From Minisyncoccota bacterium (GTDB taxonomy: Bacteria; Patescibacteriota; Minisyncoccia; Phycocordibacterales; UBA9973): a stretch of 64,000 nucleotides of DNA. How positions within the stretch are numbered: the first letter of the stretch is position 1; every line of letters starts with the position of its first letter. The notes beneath the pieces were generated by a model. That model had not been told where the DNA came from, did not search any database, and worked only from the letters and a program-made list of their open reading frames with translations. A program made the position numbers and the translations under genes. Below are positions 4,109 to 55,112 of the stretch, one piece after another. The DNA lies in assembly GCA_041661005.1 (NCBI GenBank), contig JBAZVG010000001.1, forward strand, positions 607,515-671,514, given 5' to 3'.

Positions 4109-6250
4109 TTATTTTTTAAAGAAATTACTGTCCGCCTCTTTGATAGAAAGACCAATTCTCCCTTTTTCCCTATCAATAGATATAACTTTCACGGGCACTA
4201 TCATACCCTCCTTTATTATATCGCTAACTCGCTCGACACGAAATGGGGCTAATTCAGATATGTGCACCATACCATCTGTAAAAGCATTCAACTTAACAAA
4301 GGCCCCAAAGTCGGCTATTTTTACAACTTCTCCTTTTAATATTTCTCCCACAGCATACTCGTGCGTCATTTCCAAAACTATGGACTTGGCTTTCTCTGCG
4401 GAATCACCTTTCCCTGTGAAATAGACAGTTCCATCATCTTCAATGGTGATCTCTGCTCCAGACTTTTCCTTGATCTCCTTTATAGTTTTTCCGCCACCTC
4501 CTATCACCATGCCTATCATGTCCGGATTTATTTTAATAATCAATATCTTTGGAGCGTTTGGCGATATGTCAGCGCGAGGAATTTTAATTTCTTTTTCAAT
4601 TTTGTCTAAAATAATCGCTCTGGCGGCCTTCGCTTGCAACATTGCTTCACCCAATATTTTTATCGGCACACCTTCTACTTTTACATCGAGCTGTATAGCA
4701 GTGACCCCAACCCTCGTGCCTGCAACTTTGAAATCCATGTCTCCATAGTGATCCTCAGGACCTTGGATGTCAGTCAAGATTTTATATTCATCATCAGACT
4801 TATGCATCAATCCCATCGCGATACCAGCGACAGGCGCCTTGATCGGAACTCCGCCATCCATTAATGCCAAAGTCGAAGCGCAAATCGAAGCTTGAGAAGT
4901 AGAACCATTGGAAGCCATTGATTCAGACACTAGACGAATTGTATATGGGAATTCCAAAGCAGAAGGCAAAACCATCGCGAGCGCTTTTTCAGCCAAAGCG
5001 CCATGACCCACTTCTCGACGATTTGTAAATCCTGCTCGTCCTGTTTCTCCCGAAGAATATGGTGGAAAATTGTAATGATGCATGAATCTTTTTTCAGCTT
5101 TCGTCTGCATCCCATCAATCATGTGTCTATCTTCAGGACCGCCCAATGTCAGCACCGATAAGACATGTGTCCCCCCTCGGTAAAAAATCCCGGAACCGTG
5201 CAAGACAGACGAAACCCCTCCAGCTTGAGCGTAAAGATCTCGAAGCTCATCCATTTTTCTACCATCAGCTCGTTTGTTTTCTTCGATAGCGCTCTGGTGC
5301 AGAATATCGTTTTCTGTATCATCAAACAAATTGTCTTCCGAACTAAAATCTTCTCTCTCAGTATATTTGTCTGCAACCATTTTATTCCAAATGCTATGAA
5401 GCTCGTCGATTTTTGCCTTGCCCACGCCAGAAAATATAGCATCAGACATTTTAGGCAGAATGTTTTCGTTAAATAATTTAACCGATTCAGGATCTATTTC
5501 TTCTTTCGCAATGACTCTTTTTTCTTTACCTATTTCTTTTACAATTTTCTTTTGGAAGTCTTCCAATTTGGCGATCTCTTCACTTGCCCGAGTCAAAGCT
5601 ACCTCCAATTCTTTTTCATCAGTCTGATGAGCTGAAGCTTCAATCATATTTATATTTCCATTTTTACCACAGACAGTAATATCAAATTTATATTTGGCAT
5701 CGTCTACCCTCCAGCTATACGGAGCGTTAACTATCAAACTATCGTCACTTGACTCATGGGAAGCTTGCTTTCCTTCGGGGTCATATTTTCCAATACGCAC
5801 ACAACCAACTGGACCATTCCATGGAATATTAGAAACCGCGAGCGCGAGCGAAGCGGCGTTTACTGCTAAAATTGTCGGATCATTATCGTCAACAGAAATT
5901 ACAGTCACTATCACTTGCACCGCATGGCGAATCGATTGATCAAAAAGCGGACGCAAAGTCCTATCAATAACTCGACTGGCAAGTATCGCATCTTCGCTTG
6001 GCTTGCCTTCTCTTTTTACAAACTTCGAACCTGAAATTTTACCCGAAGCGTAAAATCTTTCCACATAATCCACTGTCAAATTAAAAAATCCCAAGCCATT
6101 TTGCTTGTCTTTAGACATACAAGCAGTGGCTAGAACTATCGTCTCGCCATACTTCAACATCACTGACCCATGGGCTTGCTCTGCCAAATCTGTAAAAATA
6201 GCAGTCAAATTTTTTCCACCAATCTCCACACTATATTCTTTTTTTTGCAT
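4109..6250 (-). CDS. pnp: polyribonucleotide nucleotidyltransferase (PNPase)
   Basis: Two RNase PH domains, KH and C-terminal S1 domain. The start MQKKEY at 6250 is preferred over the upstream in-frame Met at 6313. Confidence 0.92.
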   Translation of the reverse strand: MQKKEYSVEIGGKNLTAIFTDLAEQAHGSVMLKYGETIVLATACMSKDKQNGLGFFNLTVDYVERFYASGKISGSKFVKREGKPSEDAILASRVIDRTLRPLFDQSIRHAVQVIVTVISVDDNDPTILAVNAASLALAVSNIPWNGPVGCVRIGKYDPEGKQASHESSDDSLIVNAPYSWRVDDAKYKFDITVCGKNGNINMIEASAHQTDEKELEVALTRASEEIAKLEDFQKKIVKEIGKEKRVIAKEEIDPESVKLFNENILPKMSDAIFSGVGKAKIDELHSIWNKMVADKYTEREDFSSEDNLFDDTENDILHQSAIEENKRADGRKMDELRDLYAQAGGVSSVLHGSGIFYRGGTHVLSVLTLGGPEDRHMIDGMQTKAEKRFMHHYNFPPYSSGETGRAGFTNRREVGHGALAEKALAMVLPSALEFPYTIRLVSESMASNGSTSQASICASTLALMDGGVPIKAPVAGIAMGLMHKSDDEYKILTDIQGPEDHYGDMDFKVAGTRVGVTAIQLDVKVEGVPIKILGEAMLQAKAARAIILDKIEKEIKIPRADISPNAPKILIIKINPDMIGMVIGGGGKTIKEIKEKSGAEITIEDDGTVYFTGKGDSAEKAKSIVLEMTHEYAVGEILKGEVVKIADFGAFVKLNAFTDGMVHISELAPFRVERVSDIIKEGMIVPVKVISIDREKGRIGLSIKEADSNFFKK

Positions 6251-6413
6251 TTTTTTCTTGCCCCGAGCGAAGTCGAGGGGAGTTCGTATCCAGACTACAG
6301 TGTTGTTCCGCAATTTTGGAACACTACTTTGTGTCTAGACGCGAACCGATTAACTAATAAAATCTAATCAACTTATGATCATTATAGCATTTTTAGACTA
6401 AAAGGCAATGAAA

Positions 6414-19629: not shown

Positions 19630-19651
19630 AGACATTTTTAGCGATAATTTG

Positions 19652-19725
19652 TGGTGCGGGATAGGAGAATCGAACTCCTGTCCACAGTTTGGAAAACTGT
19701 TATTTTACCATTAAACTAATCCCGC
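19652..19725 (-). tRNA. tRNA-Gly (TCC) with encoded CCA
   Basis: GCGGGAT...anticodon loop TTCCAAA...GGAGTTCGATTCTCC...ATCCCGCACCA. Confidence 0.85.
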
Positions 19726-19729
19726 AATG

Positions 19730-19800
19730 TCGGGCCGCTGGGAATTGAACCCAGTCTAAATGCTCCCAAAGCACTTGTACTACCGGTATACTACGGCCCG
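19730..19800 (-). tRNA. tRNA-Pro (TGG)
   Basis: CGGGCCG acceptor, anticodon loop TTTGGGA (G37), T arm CTGGG-TTCAATT-CCCAG. Confidence 0.8.
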
Positions 19801-19901
19801 TAATTTCTTTAACTGTGCCAGTTTAACACAAAAATTTTTTAAATTCTACCTAATTCAATTCTCCTAAAAACTATTTTTATACAGTCTATTTCTCTTTCGT
19901 C

Positions 19902-21170
19902 CTATTTAGCCCAACTCCAATCAGCTCCAGGATTTTTAGCGCCGAAAATTTCAAAGTGAATGTGGGGGCCAGTTGATTTGCCCGTAGAACCCACAAGACC
20001 GACAACATCTCCTCGGTCAACTTGTGCGCCAGTGTGAGTTATGACTTTGCTCATGTGAGCATACAAGGTTTTTGTGCCGTTTGAATGTTGAATTATCACC
20101 ATATTTCCATAACCTCCACCACAACGTGTCTGACCAACCTTACAGCCTGTCTTGACTGCTGTTACGATTCCTGGAGCAGATGCATAAATATTGGTACCAG
20201 TTGGAGCTCCAATATCTATACCTCTTCTGCCCGGACCATGAAGACCTTGAGTTTTGTGGCCAGTTGGAAGGGGATTAATAAAATATCCTATTATATTTTT
20301 CAATGAGCTAGTAGCATAGTAGTTTTTATCCTTGATTTCATTAGCTTTTAGGTTTGGCGATGGAATATCACCTCCTTCATCGGCCATATTGCCATTTGGA
20401 ATCATCAGTTTGTCTCCGATTGCAAGTTTGGTGGCTTCGTTGATGTCGTTGTAAAAAGTAATATCGTCCACATCCACCTTATACAATTTGGCTATGCTCT
20501 GTATTGTCTGCCCCTTAGTAACCGTATGTTCAATACCAGAAATGGGTAAGATGAAGAGCACATCACCCTCGATAATCTTGTCGCTTTTCTTCATATCGTT
20601 GGCCCAGAGGATGGTATTCACTGAAACTTCGAACATATCGGCTATGGCGGATATGGAATCTCCTTTTCTTACAACATAAACACTGGTTTCCATGGCAGAA
20701 GGATCCACAACATCTTTTCCACTGTAGACTCCCATGGGGCCGGTGGCTGGTAAAAGAGCATTGTTAGAGACAATGTTATCTGCGTTATCTACATCAACAA
20801 TGCCTCCTTTGTCTTTTTGGCTAACATCTTTTAATTTTTTATCTTCATAGACTGAAGCAGAAGAGATATTGGCCTGAAGAAGCGCTATGGTTCCAGAAGT
20901 TTGACTAAACTGAGTCGGATCAACAGTTGCCGTCTTCGCGCTGGCATTGTCACCCAAGATTGAAGACAAAAACCCGGCTTGAGCTCTTGTAGGCATAGAG
21001 GGCAACAAAACAACCCCAAACAATAGGGTAAGAGCGAAAATAGAGCTGTATATTTTAAATGAGTGTTTTATAAAACAAACGAATATCGTAAGAGTTCCTT
21101 CCCAGCCCTCGATTAAACATTGTAAAATAAGGGTGGAATTACAGGACGACCAGAATAGTACTGCAAACAA
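19902..21170 (-). CDS. LysM-domain M23 peptidase (secreted cell-wall hydrolase)
   Basis: Two LysM repeats and a C-terminal M23 domain (HxxxD, HIHFE); TTG start at 21170; hydrophobic signal-like segment. Confidence 0.85.
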   Translation of the reverse strand: MFAVLFWSSCNSTLILQCLIEGWEGTLTIFVCFIKHSFKIYSSIFALTLLFGVVLLPSMPTRAQAGFLSSILGDNASAKTATVDPTQFSQTSGTIALLQANISSASVYEDKKLKDVSQKDKGGIVDVDNADNIVSNNALLPATGPMGVYSGKDVVDPSAMETSVYVVRKGDSISAIADMFEVSVNTILWANDMKKSDKIIEGDVLFILPISGIEHTVTKGQTIQSIAKLYKVDVDDITFYNDINEATKLAIGDKLMIPNGNMADEGGDIPSPNLKANEIKDKNYYATSSLKNIIGYFINPLPTGHKTQGLHGPGRRGIDIGAPTGTNIYASAPGIVTAVKTGCKVGQTRCGGGYGNMVIIQHSNGTKTLYAHMSKVITHTGAQVDRGDVVGLVGSTGKSTGPHIHFEIFGAKNPGADWSWAK

Positions 21171-50399: not shown

Positions 50400-51056
50400 C
50401 TAAACAATTTCTTTTCGGTGTAGTTCAGAAAACAAAGCGACGGTTTTGCCAAAATCTTTTTCCGCAACTATGAAAATTAATTCTGTGGGTGTGGACACGA
50501 GTTCTTCAATGTTAATCCGGGCGCGAGCCGTTACTGAAAGGAGTGAGAAAAAAACATTCGGCGTGCCGAAAACTTCTGGTCCATAAGAGATTCCGATGGC
50601 GGCAAAATTGTGATTAACCCACTTTGGTTTTATTTTAAAATGTTGCAATATTTTACTTTCTAAATTTGATGAACAGATGATGTCTATTTCTGCTGTACCC
50701 ATGGTTGTCGTAAAAAAGTCTTCTTGAGTCACAGATATATTCTTGTGAAGAGATTCAAATTTTTCCATGAGTTTATTTGAGTTTTCATAAGCTATTTCTG
50801 AAAGAGGAAGTTTGGTCGTTATATTTTTTATTGCCACTTCATGAACGAGGGGTTTTTCTTTTTTAAATTCCTTACGCAGGCGCGATAGGGAAACCACCAA
50901 ACTTGTGATGGTTACTTGTTTTTTTGCGCGTTCCTCGACGGCTGGTTTTATGCGGTGCGCGTAACTGCTCATATTCATGTAGCCGTTAGTCAAAGCAAAG
51001 CAGGCTTCTACTTCTTTGAGCACTATTTCTCGCACAATTGGTTGTATCTTGATCAC
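50400..51056 (-). CDS. hypothetical protein (possible ACT-like regulatory domain)
   Basis: 218 aa; weak resemblance only. Confidence 0.4.
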   Translation of the reverse strand: MIKIQPIVREIVLKEVEACFALTNGYMNMSSYAHRIKPAVEERAKKQVTITSLVVSLSRLRKEFKKEKPLVHEVAIKNITTKLPLSEIAYENSNKLMEKFESLHKNISVTQEDFFTTTMGTAEIDIICSSNLESKILQHFKIKPKWVNHNFAAIGISYGPEVFGTPNVFFSLLSVTARARINIEELVSTPTELIFIVAEKDFGKTVALFSELHRKEIV

Positions 51057-51173: not shown

Positions 51174-52088
51174 ATGAAAAAATTGTCACAAAGTTTGCTT
51201 GATGTCATAGGAAATACGCCTTTGGTCAAAGTTCCATTTAAAAGCGAAGCAAAAATTTTTGCCAAATTAGAATATTTAAATCCAGGAGGAAGTATCAAAG
51301 ACCGTTCGGCGCTCTTCATGATCGAAGAAGCGGAGAAAAAAGGTTTGCTGAAGCCCGGCGGAACGATAGTCGAATCTTCTTCTGGGAATCAAGGTGTGGC
51401 TTGCGCTATGATCGGAGCAACTAAAGGATACAAAGTCATTATCACTGCTTCTCCGGCCATGAGTGAAGAAAAAGTAAAAACCATCAAGGCTTATGGAGCG
51501 AAAGTCATAATGTGTCCCGCTGTTTCTATCCTTGACCCCGCAAGTCGTCATAGTCAGGCATCTATAATTGCAAAAAATACCCCAAACTCTTTTATGCCAG
51601 ATCAATATTTCAATCTTTCCAATCCAAAGGCTCATTACACGAGTCTGGGCCCAGAGATTTGGCGACAAACCAATGGAAAGATTACCCATTTTTTTGCAGC
51701 GGCTGGAACTGGTGGAACAATAAGTGGCGCAGGGAAATTCTTAAAAGAAAAAAATCCTAAAATTAAAATCATGGCTGTCGATGTCGATACATCTTTTCAT
51801 TCCACCAAAGGACATCCATCACCATACAGGATGGAGGGCATCGGGATTGATTTTGAAACTCATTGTCTCAATGAATCTGTGATTGATGAATTTTTCCCAG
51901 TTTCAGATGAAAATGGACTTGATATGCTCAAAGTTATGGCTTCAAATTATGGTTTGCTTGTTGGCACGGGCAGTGGGGCGGTAGCTTATGCTGTTCAAGA
52001 ATATTTAAACAAACTAACCAAAGATGATGTGGTGGTGATGCTGTTTGGCGACTCCGGCCGGGCGTATCTGTCAAAAAACTATTTTTAA
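51174..52088 (+). CDS. cysK: PLP-dependent cysteine synthase/cystathionine beta-synthase family enzyme
   Basis: NPGGSIKDR lysine motif, GTGGT nucleotide-binding loop. Confidence 0.85.
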   Translation: MKKLSQSLLDVIGNTPLVKVPFKSEAKIFAKLEYLNPGGSIKDRSALFMIEEAEKKGLLKPGGTIVESSSGNQGVACAMIGATKGYKVIITASPAMSEEKVKTIKAYGAKVIMCPAVSILDPASRHSQASIIAKNTPNSFMPDQYFNLSNPKAHYTSLGPEIWRQTNGKITHFFAAAGTGGTISGAGKFLKEKNPKIKIMAVDVDTSFHSTKGHPSPYRMEGIGIDFETHCLNESVIDEFFPVSDENGLDMLKVMASNYGLLVGTGSGAVAYAVQEYLNKLTKDDVVVMLFGDSGRAYLSKNYF

Positions 52089-52176
52089 CAGATTTAACAA
52101 AAAGATTGAGTTTCATGGTGGATGTTAAAAAAATTAACTTAAAATGACGAAACTGATATTTTGTATGAAACCTTAA

Positions 52177-52368
52177 TTGAACAAATTTATGTGTGATAAA
52201 AATAGAAGTCTCGTTACAAGCGAGATCACGAGGCAAGTTAACCTTCGAGAAGAACTCCGTTTGTCGGCTTTGACTCTTAGATTGCAAGGGGTTACAAGGT
52301 CCAACATATGGAAATTAGTCAAGGAGGAACGCGCTCGACGAAAATCGAGATATAGGCCAAAATACTAG
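52177..52368 (+). CDS. small basic protein (63 aa) followed by its own terminator hairpin (agccggc ... gccggct)
   Basis: Possible HTH-like region; low information. Confidence 0.3.
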   Translation: MNKFMCDKNRSLVTSEITRQVNLREELRLSALTLRLQGVTRSNIWKLVKEERARRKSRYRPKY

Positions 52369-52477
52369 CCTGAACAATCATCAACTGAGAGCCGGCGATG
52401 CAAAGCCGGCTTTACTCTTCGTTCAAATCCACCACACTCCGCACTTCTTCAGTGAGTTCAACGATTTTATCATTTAG

Positions 52478-52514
52478 CATTAGTAAGCGGTCGCACACTA
52501 TTGCTAAATTAGCG
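52478..52514. repeat. 37-bp direct repeat, copy 1 (agcatta-gt-aagcggtcgcacactattgctaaatt), with 9-bp inverted arms
   Basis: Identical except 2 nt to 53088-53124; the two copies flank the PaaX-like gene. Confidence 0.65.
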
Positions 52515-53072
52515 CAAATTAAATTTTTTCATTAGGTGTAGTTGATTATCTATCTTTTCAGCTAAAATGAAACGCACGTATCTTCTTGCATTATAAAATT
52601 CCAAAATAAATTCAATTTCTTTATTGCAAGGATAAGGGTATACCAATACGGACTTTTGAAGCTCAATAAGGCCAACTTCCCGAAAATGCAACCGAAGTGA
52701 ATCACGTAATCTTTTTAATTTTTCAGGGATATCAAACATAACTACTCGCCATTTACCGTCCCACTTTGCTGGTTTTTTTATTTCTATTTTATCAATATTG
52801 AATCGTAACGCTTTTTGTTTGCCATTTTCATTTAAAATAAAAGTTGTTGTTCCATCTTTATTTTCCTTTTCTTCTATTAAATGAGAAGTATACAGTGAAT
52901 TGATTGCTCTTTCTAAAGCTTGGCGGTTTATATTTTTCCATTCTTTCGGTATTTGCTTTAAAATCCAGAAATGTTTTTTGGGTGATTTTGTTAAACCAAG
53001 TGCAATGCCAGCGGAAAGCAACAAGAGAGCTTTCTTTTTAATATTTCCTATTCTTGGTTCATTGTGTCCCAT
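52509..53072 (-). CDS. PaaX-like transcriptional regulator (wHTH + PaaX_C-like WDGKWRVVMFDIPE)
   Basis: WDGKWRVVMFDIPEKLKRLRDSLRLHFREVGLIELQKSVLVYP matches the PaaX C-domain signature. Confidence 0.55.
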   Translation of the reverse strand: MGHNEPRIGNIKKKALLLLSAGIALGLTKSPKKHFWILKQIPKEWKNINRQALERAINSLYTSHLIEEKENKDGTTTFILNENGKQKALRFNIDKIEIKKPAKWDGKWRVVMFDIPEKLKRLRDSLRLHFREVGLIELQKSVLVYPYPCNKEIEFILEFYNARRYVRFILAEKIDNQLHLMKKFNLR

Positions 53073-53087
53073 CTCTTTATTATAGCA

Positions 53088-53124
53088 TTAACAAGCGGTC
53101 GCACACTATTGCTAAATTGATTCT
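53088..53124. repeat. 37-bp direct repeat, copy 2
   Basis: See 52478-52514. Confidence 0.65.
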
Positions 53125-53141
53125 AAAAAACAATTTTTATA

Positions 53142-53411
53142 TCAGACCTTTTTAAAAAATTTGTACAAAAATCTTAATATTTTTTCACATATTGCTGCCA
53201 AAATAAATATCCAGATAAATTCTATTATCCAAAAAATGACTGAAAAAAGAACATTAATCTCATTGAATATATTCGTGAAAAAAATCGGAGCTAATAATAT
53301 ACTCATATAAATATCAATAATTCTGGAATGTAAATAAAACAAACCCACCACTGGACTTATGGAGAGTACAACAAAAATAATTACCCTTAAAAAATTTACT
53401 TTTTTACTCAT
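53142..53411 (-). CDS. small membrane protein (2-3 TM helices)
   Basis: 89 aa hydrophobic ORF between the repeat and pilB. Confidence 0.35.
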   Translation of the reverse strand: MSKKVNFLRVIIFVVLSISPVVGLFYLHSRIIDIYMSILLAPIFFTNIFNEINVLFSVIFWIIEFIWIFILAAICEKILRFLYKFFKKV

Positions 53412-53414
53412 ACT

Positions 53415-55112
53415 TTATTCCTCACTCAAATCCACCACACTCTGTACTTCTGCGAGCGAGGTGATGCCATTTAAGATTTTAACTATACCATCCTGACGCA
53501 TAGAGAGAATGCCCTGAGAACGCGCCACTTTTTTGATTTCATGTTCGTTGGGGCTTTCTGGAATTATTTTTTCTATCGCTTCGTCGGTTTTGATCGCTTC
53601 GAAAATGCCTATTCGTCCCTTGTAGCCTATGTTGTTGCATTTTTCGCAACCGACAGGGGAGAAAATTTTGAAAGATTCATCTGGTTTTATATTATATTTT
53701 GAAAGATCCTTGCCTTCATCTTTTATACTGTCCAAGACTAATTTTATAGTCTTGCTTTCTTCTTCGGTTGGATTATTTTCTTTTTTACAAAATTGGCAGA
53801 GTTTGCGGACCAAGCGTTGAGCGATGGAGAGAGATAGGGCTGAAACTAAGATCTTTGGATTAACTCCTAGGTCAATGAGACGGGGGATGACGCCAGCGGC
53901 GTTGTTGGTGTGTAGGGTGGAGAAGACTATGTGACCGGTGAGGGCAGACTGCACGGCAGTGTCGGCTGTTTCTTTGTCGCGGATTTCTCCGACCATCACT
54001 ACGTCTGGATCTTGACGCAACGCGCTACGTAACCCTTCTGCGAAAGTGTAGCCTCTCTCTTCATTTGTCTGAGTTTGGGTGATGCCAGTCAGGTGATATT
54101 CTATCGGATCTTCGATGGTGATTATTTTAATCTCTGGTGAATATATTTTTCGAAGAAATGCGTATAAAGTGGTAGTCTTTCCACTTCCAGTAGGGCCGGT
54201 AATCAAGATCAAGCCGTTCGGTTTTACTATTTCTTGTTGTATTACAGAAAATAGATAAGGTTCTATTCCCATATCCTCCAGTTCTATCTGGATAGATTTC
54301 GGATCAAGAATTCGCATGACTATCGATTCACCATATGCGCCGGGAATGAGAGACGCGCGGATGCTCAATTCTTCTTTTTCTTCCATGATGCTGAAACGAC
54401 CATCTTGAGCTATTTTTGAAGTGAGTTTCATGCCCGAGAGAAGTTTGATACGCGAATTTAACAAGCGATATATATCAAGTCCGAAAAAATTTATATCTTG
54501 AAGCACTCCATCCAGACGCAACCGCAACCTCCCTCTATCCTTTTCTGGTTCTATATGTATATCCGAAGCCTTGATGGCTATCGCGCCAGCCAAGATGATT
54601 TCAAGCAAGCGGGAAATTTTATGAATTTTATTTCCCTCCAGAGCTTCCATTACCAACTTTTCTATATCTTGCATGCGTTCGATGCTTTTTGCAGTATCTC
54701 TCAGAACTTCGGGGGAGATATCCAACCCTCCTATTTTTGAATCCTCAGCCATTGAAATTTCTTTATACCTATTCCAGACTTTATTCAAACTTGCGTTTGA
54801 AGCCATGTAAAAAGTGGGCGTTAAATTTTTTCCTTCCGCCACTTCTTTTAGTGTTTTCAAAAGATCAGGTGTTGGTGTGCGTACGGCTATGAAAATATTT
54901 TTTCCAAAAAGTTTAAAAGGCGCGACTTTCATTTGAGTAGCGTCTTTTTCGGGTATTGCTCTAAGCGCTTCATTGTCTATGCCTAGGCGATACAGGTCGA
55001 CATAGGGGAGATGGTATTTAGATTCTGCTAGTGTCGCCACTAATTCCTCTTCTTCTTGCTTACGCAAGTCATCTAGTTGTTTATTTTGTTTTTCTTCATC
55101 AAAATCGGACAT
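53415..55112 (-). CDS. pilB: type IV pilus / type II secretion assembly ATPase (PilB/GspE family)
   Basis: Walker A GPTGSGKTTT, Asp box, His box, tetracysteine motif CEKCNNIGYKGR. Confidence 0.9.
   Translation of the reverse strand: MSDFDEEKQNKQLDDLRKQEEEELVATLAESKYHLPYVDLYRLGIDNEALRAIPEKDATQMKVAPFKLFGKNIFIAVRTPTPDLLKTLKEVAEGKNLTPTFYMASNASLNKVWNRYKEISMAEDSKIGGLDISPEVLRDTAKSIERMQDIEKLVMEALEGNKIHKISRLLEIILAGAIAIKASDIHIEPEKDRGRLRLRLDGVLQDINFFGLDIYRLLNSRIKLLSGMKLTSKIAQDGRFSIMEEKEELSIRASLIPGAYGESIVMRILDPKSIQIELEDMGIEPYLFSVIQQEIVKPNGLILITGPTGSGKTTTLYAFLRKIYSPEIKIITIEDPIEYHLTGITQTQTNEERGYTFAEGLRSALRQDPDVVMVGEIRDKETADTAVQSALTGHIVFSTLHTNNAAGVIPRLIDLGVNPKILVSALSLSIAQRLVRKLCQFCKKENNPTEEESKTIKLVLDSIKDEGKDLSKYNIKPDESFKIFSPVGCEKCNNIGYKGRIGIFEAIKTDEAIEKIIPESPNEHEIKKVARSQGILSMRQDGIVKILNGITSLAEVQSVVDLSEE

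Follow-up and report, generated by a model that had tools for sequence, protein, structure and literature searches.

A small gene unit lying behind pilB is described here in a 64,000-nucleotide (nt) stretch of the Minisyncoccota contig JBAZVG010000001.1; this whole stretch is referred to as the window. The unit consists of a gene for a 187-amino-acid (aa) protein of the PaaX family, bracketed by two copies of a palindrome, and it is widespread in bacteria of the candidate phyla radiation (CPR). The protein most likely binds its own flanking palindromes and acts as an autorepressor. The arrangement at pilB is best explained, with a probability of about two in three, by an old insertion of this self-contained, self-binding gene unit into the 3' flank of pilB, with later patchy spread. 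No account of a palindrome-gene-palindrome unit, or of this PaaX-like family, was found in the searchable literature. The features of the region, with the open reading frames (ORFs) taken from the ORF list, are as follows.

53415..55112, minus strand: pilB (GspE/PilB ATPase of type IV pili and type II secretion systems; ORF list, PF00437, E=5.9e-115)
53413..53451, minus strand: functional pilB terminus and stop codon, tail copy A (repeat search, translation)
53142..53411, minus strand: 89-aa small predicted membrane ORF, lineage-specific cargo in the interval between pilB and the unit
53083..53118, minus strand: upstream palindrome U, proposed operator, with arms AGCAATAGTGTGC and GCTTGTTAATGCT and centre CGACCG
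53070..53087, minus strand: predicted extended -10 promoter TGCTATAAT (53079-53087), 6-nt spacer (53073-53078) and ATG (53070-53072), predicted to be leaderless
52509..53072, minus strand: gene of the 187-aa minimal PaaX-family protein (PF20803 PaaX_M, E=6.2e-20)
52472..52510, minus strand: downstream palindrome D, which runs into the stop codon (52509-52511) and is proposed to be a second binding site and a terminator hairpin
52412..52465, minus strand: pilB terminus relic (IVELTEEVRSVVDLNEE and stop), tail copy B, 18 codons (repeat search, translation)
52388..52413, no strand assigned: G+C-rich terminator-like hairpin, the native pilB-downstream terminator, with a 9-bp stem and a T-rich plus-strand tail
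52086..52387, no strand assigned: native pilB-downstream intergenic flank, common to the empty-site relative L119 (pairwise alignment, BLAST) and forming a right-flank cluster of the window, L031 and L039

Two pairs of direct repeats are found in this layout. The pilB-tail repeat (52410-52448 against 53413-53451) covers 39 nt at 85% identity with a spacing of 1003, and the duplication scores z = 12.2 against shuffled flanks. The palindromic repeat (52475-52510 against 53083-53118) covers 36 nt at 94% identity with a spacing of 608. The tail core and the palindrome core each occur exactly twice in the 64 kb, where 100 shuffles gave an expectation of 0.00, and no palindrome copies beyond these two are present in the window. 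The relic translates as MLNDKIVELTEEVRSVVDLNEE and the genuine pilB end as VKILNGITSLAEVQSVVDLSEE, each followed by a stop codon; relative to the functional tail, the relic carries an extra codon and differs at 15% of positions. The pilB product itself is intact, with 565 aa ending in SLAEVQSVVDLSEE, and equals in length the orthologues at empty sites. The 36-nt repeats are themselves imperfect palindromes (inverted repeat I5, with 18-nt arms 83% complementary and 2 nt apart). A first-pass annotation of this DNA had reported the duplicated pilB terminus, the near-identical repeats at the stop codon and upstream of the start of a PaaX-like gene, and this gene together with a small membrane-protein ORF between the tail copies; all of these observations were reproduced, including the translations. 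A decayed second gene copy after the second repeat, an idea taken from the 609-nt spacing of repeat D3, was rejected, as local alignment revealed no such homology.

More than 300 homologues of the 187-aa protein were found; the best 120, from Paceibacteria/Nomurabacteria genomes and from metagenomes, share 75-87% identity, and almost all are 187 aa long. About 100 homologous loci (L-numbered below) were fetched for comparison of their flanks. The architecture of the unit is common to nearly all of the approximately 80 close homologues with both flanks readable. The upstream palindrome, kept in 52 distinct copies, has the form (T)TTAGCA(T/A)TAG...CGACCG...TTAATGCTA and continues directly into TATAAT, six variable bases and ATG. 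Its 3' arm contributes TGnTATAAT, the TG of the extended -10 element lying inside the arm. The -10 hexamer can be written as TAnnnT in all 61 distinct upstream regions, is preceded by TGC in 57 of them, and in 49 is separated from the start codon by exactly 6 nt. TGnTATAAT-N6-ATG would be the signature of an extended -10 promoter giving a leaderless mRNA. A generic promoter scan missed this element because the scan demands a -35 element, and cross-locus conservation was relied on instead. In 45 distinct homologous loci, a downstream palindrome copy coincides with the stop codon or follows it closely. Across contexts, nucleotide homology extends from 10-20 nt left of the upstream palindrome to the right edge of the downstream one, and the palindrome sites of the fetched loci, 0-3 in each, all adjoin the gene or its cargo. 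Because such palindromes bracket the gene family in every genomic context examined, the 36-nt repeats are components of the unit and not insertion scars, and their first-pass interpretation as footprints of the insertion is abandoned.

The palindromes also vary together with the protein. Among 97 distinct palindrome copies, the proposed pairing held in 87.2% of cells, compared to 78.9% for shuffles and 23-45% for slid controls; change on both sides was seen in 9 of 13 pairs, and the covariation score was 0.288 against 0.146. Proteins with the motif KRLGxTQ(R/K)K go with AGCATTTGC arms in the upstream 5' arm (12/12), the upstream 3' arm (11/12) and the downstream 5' arm (10/12), and those of the PRIGNLKKK type go with AGCA(T/A)TA arms (47/47). 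The covarying motif is situated in the N-terminal part of the protein. Homologues at 30-57% identity, from Saccharibacteria and other CPR lineages, are also bracketed by two palindrome copies; their arms are wholly different and often perfect, and the centre is conserved as CGATCG/CGRYCG. Upstream and downstream copies from the same locus are more alike than copies from different loci (0.874 against 0.768), a value as high being reached in 0 of 2000 shuffles. Two units lying 8 kb apart on one contig (L113 and L115, GCA_964514835.1) differ in both protein-motif type and palindrome type.

The overlap with the promoter and the covariation of protein and palindrome support autorepression by a dimer reading the outer arms, and of the roles that the first-pass annotation raised for the repeats it is the autoregulatory operator pair that these data favour. 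In the mechanism proposed here, the protein would bind its own palindrome as a dimer, the N-terminal part reading the outer arms and the conserved CGRYCG centre lying under the conserved part of the protein. Binding at the upstream copy would block the promoter and thus bring about autorepression. The downstream copy would serve both as a second binding site and as an RNA hairpin that ends the transcript and shields the unit from its convergent neighbour.

The only Pfam match of the 187-aa protein is PF20803 PaaX_M at residues 102-175, and the protein ends 12 residues beyond it; the 22 aligned homologues all measure 186-189 aa. The PaaX_C domain has no Pfam match in the protein, the PaaX equivalog model TIGR02277, with a cut-off of 264.55 bits, gives a score of 26.9, and the neighbourhood lacks paa genes, its members being pilB, polA, cysK-like, ruvB, NUDIX, dnaE and dapF. 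Orthology with PaaX is ruled out on these three grounds, so that the first-pass label of PaaX type can be retained only in the sense of one shared domain. Cas2 models give weak sequence matches over residues 108-142 (TIGR01573, 19.1 bits against a cut-off of 24.5); the gene lists of L001, L113 and L115 contain no member of the Cas1 family, and no CRISPR array is present in the annotated loci. In an AlphaFold2 (AF2) model of low confidence (predicted local distance difference test, pLDDT, 59), three helices and two strands are followed by the order beta-alpha-beta-beta-alpha-beta. The N-terminal half, without a Pfam match, corresponds to the three helices and the beta hairpin of this model and aligns weakly with 8A39. 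The best Foldseek matches are Cas2 structures (5ZYF, 2IVY and 3EXC; TM to target 0.59-0.66) and Escherichia coli PaaX 8A39 (158 columns). Since the AF2 model is poor, these fold matches are taken as corroborative. A profile search of PDB sequences returned nothing meaningful. An invariant residue, Asp114 (D114), directly follows strand one of the Cas2-like domain. The protein is a minimal PaaX-family member with a predicted winged helix and the Cas2-like domain, and without an effector domain; its PaaX_M domain is presumed to be the dimerisation domain. A second gene copy, encoding an 80% identical protein, exists in the metagenome-assembled genome (MAG) of the window (Candidatus Paceibacterota). 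Additionally, a more distant PaaX_M/Cas2-like protein of 164 aa is encoded in L001 at 19646-20140 (minus strand), 9 kb from the 187-aa unit on the same contig.

The insertion at pilB is revealed by relatives without the unit. The comparison with related pilB downstream regions proposed in the first-pass annotation identified such sites in L104-L112, L117 and L119, whose PilB is 86-88% identical. Beyond pilB lie a convergent dapF at a distance of 3-17 nt in L108-L112, a histidine-kinase-like gene in L104-L107, and small ORFs with a genuine RAYT-type transposase in L117. L119 is syntenic with the window on both sides: polA lies on one side of pilB, and on the other an intergenic region is followed by a 218-aa ORF and ruvB, as downstream in the window. 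The pilB stop codon of L119 is followed by a terminator hairpin homologous to the one behind the relic of the window, and the remaining flank also aligns. The shared terminator indicates that the relic is the original pilB end, still on its native terminator, and that the interval from the relic to the functional stop codon has been inserted. The original terminus would have been displaced or duplicated when the unit arrived, pilB keeping an intact end. Homologous hairpins are also found behind the relics of L031 and L039, and folding of the hairpin at 52388..52413 is predicted for both strands. Within the flank conserved in L119, L031 and L039, the window contains a 63-aa basic ORF (52177-52368, plus strand) convergent to the unit and without a Pfam match; a small ORF with a similar basic tail is readable in L039. 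Neither the window region nor the related loci matched Rfam.

Relics with an identical left junction (GCTAAATGAYAAA followed by ATY...) occur in the window, L039 and L069, and decayed pilB relics in L010 and L031. As these junction-sharing relics exist in relatives, the insertion is older than the window genome. The first-pass proposal of an insertion or duplication event is therefore upheld as an insertion at the pilB 3' end, on the evidence of the unit-free relatives and the synteny of L119, but not as a recent or private event. In L024, L031/L039 and L069, relics of the dapF terminus lie close to the unit on its left, and in L031 and L039 this is so despite a right flank of the non-dapF type, as in the empty site of L119. 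These dapF relics suggest that the first insertion hit a tight pilB/dapF junction, probably the ancestral convergent target, and would have duplicated both gene ends, over at least ~130 nt, with both genes kept intact. Behind a dnaE-adjacent unit, L046 carries a dnaE-tail relic of at least 93 nt with a frameshift, in which the last 10 codons specify identical amino acids with six synonymous differences; it is the only such relic among the 12 dnaE-adjacent loci. A flank repeat in L073 (z = 8.4) falls within conserved coding sequence and was treated as probable chance.

The unit recurs in several genomic contexts: at a NUDIX gene (47 loci), after dnaE (12), after pilB (11), and in rarer ones. 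Filled and empty pilB sites are interleaved on the PilB tree. The protein tree is not sorted by context, and identity within a context equals that between contexts, at ~77%. Spread between lineages by homologous recombination is the simplest account. The left crossover would lie in pilB and the right one between the donor relic and the recipient's own tail, which would preserve the junction and renew the relic from the recipient tail. The relic of L039 equals the functional pilB tail of L031 at 55 of 55 positions, L031 and L039 being sisters that are 94% identical, and the relic of L031 itself has decayed through G-to-A changes. The NUDIX and 176-aa neighbours were tested as duplicates and are not. 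In L113, the unit follows a 218-aa ORF, and a second copy of this ORF (72% identical) is located on its far side, together with a HAD hydrolase and lysA; the same ORF family is present in the window at 50400..51056 (minus strand). Two contigs of one GTDB genome (JBBUAS01; L012 and L015) end inside the PaaX-like gene, covering residues 93-186 and 1-97. An identical stretch common to paralogous copies of that genome would produce such ends by interrupting the assembly.

Several points weigh against the reading of an inserted, self-binding unit. The upstream copy in the window folds no better than shuffles (z = +0.26), and within the palindromes sense-strand G.T mismatches outnumber A.C mismatches by 126 to 12. 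This bias points to a single-stranded hairpin, of RNA or DNA, instead of or besides a duplex operator, so that selection probably acts as well on a hairpin of this kind, an RNA terminator for instance. The downstream 3' arm tracks the protein type poorly (4/11), which would fit frequent recombination breakpoints within the downstream palindrome. The covariation of motif and arm may go back to no more than one or two independent changes in evolution. It is not obvious why an autorepressor should need another site behind the gene that encodes it, and no regulated target other than the unit's own gene was seen in the 64 kb. The fold matches have E values of 0.01 or higher and come from a model with a pLDDT of 59. 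Recombinational spread rests on few loci, and a 55-nt arm is a weak RecA substrate. What is said here of operator function, of a leaderless start and of termination is deduced from sequence.

The same distribution could also be read as that of a new mobile or selfish element of CPR bacteria, in which the winged helix-turn-helix/Cas2-like protein recognises subfamily-specific palindromic termini and promotes its own relocation. The protein would catalyse or direct excision and integration, perhaps cutting at the CGRYCG centre; landing at gene ends would produce the long target duplications, and a neighbour gene would occasionally be relocated as well, for example the nucleotidyltransferase gene of L095 with its third palindrome. 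The palindromes as boundaries of the unit, the three or more recurrent contexts with several rarer ones, the protein tree unsorted by context with equal identity within and between contexts, the patchy presence at pilB relative to the PilB tree, and the tail duplications at pilB, dapF and dnaE are all in line with mobility. So are the third palindrome bracketing the L095 gene, the invariant D114 with the alignment of Cas2 models to residues 108-142, and the contig breaks within the gene in L012 and L015. However, near-identical copies were not observed in any one genome (in the two genomes where paralogues were compared, these share ~76-80% identity), and the three main contexts are kept across many genera, as vertical inheritance predicts. 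Target duplications of a fixed short length are lacking, the long ones varying in extent and affecting a minority of loci, and the empty pilB sites contain no solo palindrome. Moreover, PaaX_M is not a known recombinase or transposase fold, and the pilB/dapF junction also gathers unrelated insertions (RAYT, small ORFs), so that the site and not the unit may be special. Self-directed mobility is thus considered unlikely.

It is quite unlikely that the palindromes are RNA hairpins only, that is, terminators or stabilisers insulating the gene, with the protein acting on some other target. The excess of G.T over A.C agrees with hairpins, as does the downstream copy of the window, which folds at -15.3 kcal/mol (z = -3.58). 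In each of the three main contexts the downstream copy, placed directly at the stop codon, has a convergent gene opposite it, and in many copies a T-run follows a few bases later. The T-run, however, is not adjacent to the stem, and the upstream copy of the window is not a stable hairpin. The predicted leaderless transcript would not include that copy either, and units at a NUDIX gene have no co-directional gene upstream. Hairpins alone would further leave aside that the arms covary with a protein motif, that the two upstream half-sites change together, and that each distant subfamily has its own perfect palindrome.

It is very unlikely that the insertion represents a small integrative element whose movement depends on a site-specific recombinase gene located elsewhere, with the ~55-nt pilB tail as attachment site of the element, in the manner of 3'-end islands that carry a replacement gene end. 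The direct repeats of the target 3' end (pilB in the window, L039/L031, dnaE in L046), the junction shared by the window, L039 and L069, and the tail homology ending just past the stop codon would all be expected of such an element. The same applies to the protein-like differences between functional tail and relic in the window and L046, and to the pristine 55/55 relic of L039 beside the decayed one in L031. Against this, no integrase gene was found in or beside any of the ~100 loci; the insert comprises the 89-aa ORF and the 187-aa gene only, without a tyrosine or serine recombinase there or in related loci, and the pilB and dnaE targets would require different attachment sites. These observations are equally accounted for by homologous recombination in which the relic serves as one arm, and no additional enzyme is then required. 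Finally, since the source is a MAG, a local tandem duplication of recent date or an artefact of assembly is conceivable, but its probability is negligible, given that the tail copies differ at 15% of positions with an extra codon in the relic and that assemblies made independently from other samples (L010, L031, L039, L069) show the arrangement too.

In the preferred reading of an old insertion with patchy spread, the 89-aa ORF would be later, lineage-specific cargo. The interval between the pilB stop codon and the unit is variable among genomes. The 89-aa ORF has no match in Pfam, NCBIfam or PADLOC, and a search of 1.84 billion representatives gave just two credible homologues, at 51% and 41% identity. 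Since it is absent from all other fetched loci and different cargo occupies the same position in other genomes, it is not part of the conserved unit. The other cargo includes a zinc-ribbon ORF in L077 and L115, a 255-aa ORF in L085, and a membrane ORF on the other strand in L031; L010 and L083 have none. In the otherwise A+T-rich genome of L024, the position is taken by a G+C-rich non-coding stretch of ~220 nt (1870-2090), which looks like a structured RNA and has no Rfam match. In L095 (2187-2963; also in L026), the opposite strand carries an NTP_transf_2 nucleotidyltransferase gene (220 aa) between the upstream palindrome of the unit and a third palindrome copy, the latter 29 nt past the pilB stop codon in L095. 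This gene is divergent from the unit, whose upstream palindrome forms the common control region. A related 221-aa ORF is found right of the unit in L010 (5655..6320). A short cargo segment is inverted between L031 (2143-2157, AGGCTCTAGACTAGC) and L039 (121-136, GCTAGTCTAGAGCCT), and the left-hand sequences differ.

Insertions also occur around pilB where the unit is absent. In the pilB/dapF junction of L117, an IS200-like Y1 (RAYT-type) transposase gene of 221 aa (5630-6358; Y1_Tnp, E=1.2e-09) is flanked by its own inverted hairpins (GAGTTGTGAGG...CCTCACAACTC). Its presence at a unit-free junction implies that this junction is a general insertion hotspot. A RAYT origin of the palindromes was dropped as an idea, the like-sized ORFs of L010 and L095 being nucleotidyltransferases unrelated to the L117 transposase. 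Between the pilB flank and the 218-aa ORF, the window contains a cysK-like (PALP) gene (51174-52088, plus strand) that is absent in the otherwise syntenic L119, a second difference in gene content around pilB. Some relatives (L108-L111) have AbiEii and reverse-transcriptase-like genes between polA and pilB, a defence-type insertion upstream of pilB.

The genomes of CPR bacteria are tiny, and very few of their regulators have been characterised. The unit described here is a compact and very widespread cis/trans system with a predicted promoter, operator and terminator. Its natural specificity variants offer ready predictions of orthogonal repressor/operator pairs and a concrete target for binding experiments. 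In public records these proteins are misleadingly labelled PaaX or Cas2, although they neither regulate phenylacetate catabolism nor belong to CRISPR systems. The tail relics illustrate how an insertion can enter nearly gap-free convergent junctions without loss of either gene, and a duplicated gene end may carry an insertion between lineages through ordinary recombination. If the unit were mobile, it would represent a new class of element based on the Cas2-like fold, with a Cas2-fold protein as the key mobility factor without Cas1.

Compared to known systems, the protein resembles PaaX of E. coli W (PDB 8A39; TIGR02277) in its PaaX_M domain, and it may also have an N-terminal winged helix, predicted from the low-confidence model. 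PaaX represses the paa genes of phenylacetate catabolism. It is a transcriptional repressor (PMC4498308). The 187-aa protein differs from it in size (PaaX has about 305-316 aa) and in the lack of the PaaX_C effector domain; moreover, its gene is bracketed by two sites of its own, with a predicted leaderless promoter, and these are the only sites seen. PaaX operators have widely spaced inverted half-sites, resembling the spacing of the covarying outer arms. With the Cas2/VapD family, nucleases of ferredoxin fold from CRISPR adaptation and toxin-antitoxin systems, the C-terminal half shares the predicted beta-alpha-beta-beta-alpha-beta order, and Cas2 structures are the top fold matches of the model, but the sequence scores do not reach the curated cut-offs, the domain is joined to a predicted DNA-binding domain, and neither cas1 nor a CRISPR array accompanies it in the annotated loci.

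RAYT genes with their repetitive extragenic palindromic (REP) sequences are similar in that one gene lies between two imperfect palindromes of ~30-40 bp specific to the gene lineage. They differ in that the protein described here has no HUH/Y1 domain, dispersed solo palindromes were not seen in the window or the fetched loci, and the upstream palindrome is fused to the promoter. An integron cassette, promoterless, ending in attC and adjacent to an IntI integrase, is unlike the unit, which has no integrase in the annotated loci and whose gene has its own conserved -10 element. Islands that replace gene 3' ends share the direct repeats of the target end at both borders, whereas the unit encodes no tyrosine or serine recombinase of its own. 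Controller (C) proteins and other small helix-turn-helix autorepressors likewise have a palindrome over their own promoter and specificity variants, of which two types occur here in one genome. Unlike them, the unit has a second site at the 3' end of its gene, another domain architecture, and no partner operon except the divergent nucleotidyltransferase gene of L095 that shares its site. The unit is taken to be, most probably, an autoregulated repressor of the winged-helix type whose gene lies between two of its own sites, and the function best supported for the repeats is that of an operator pair.

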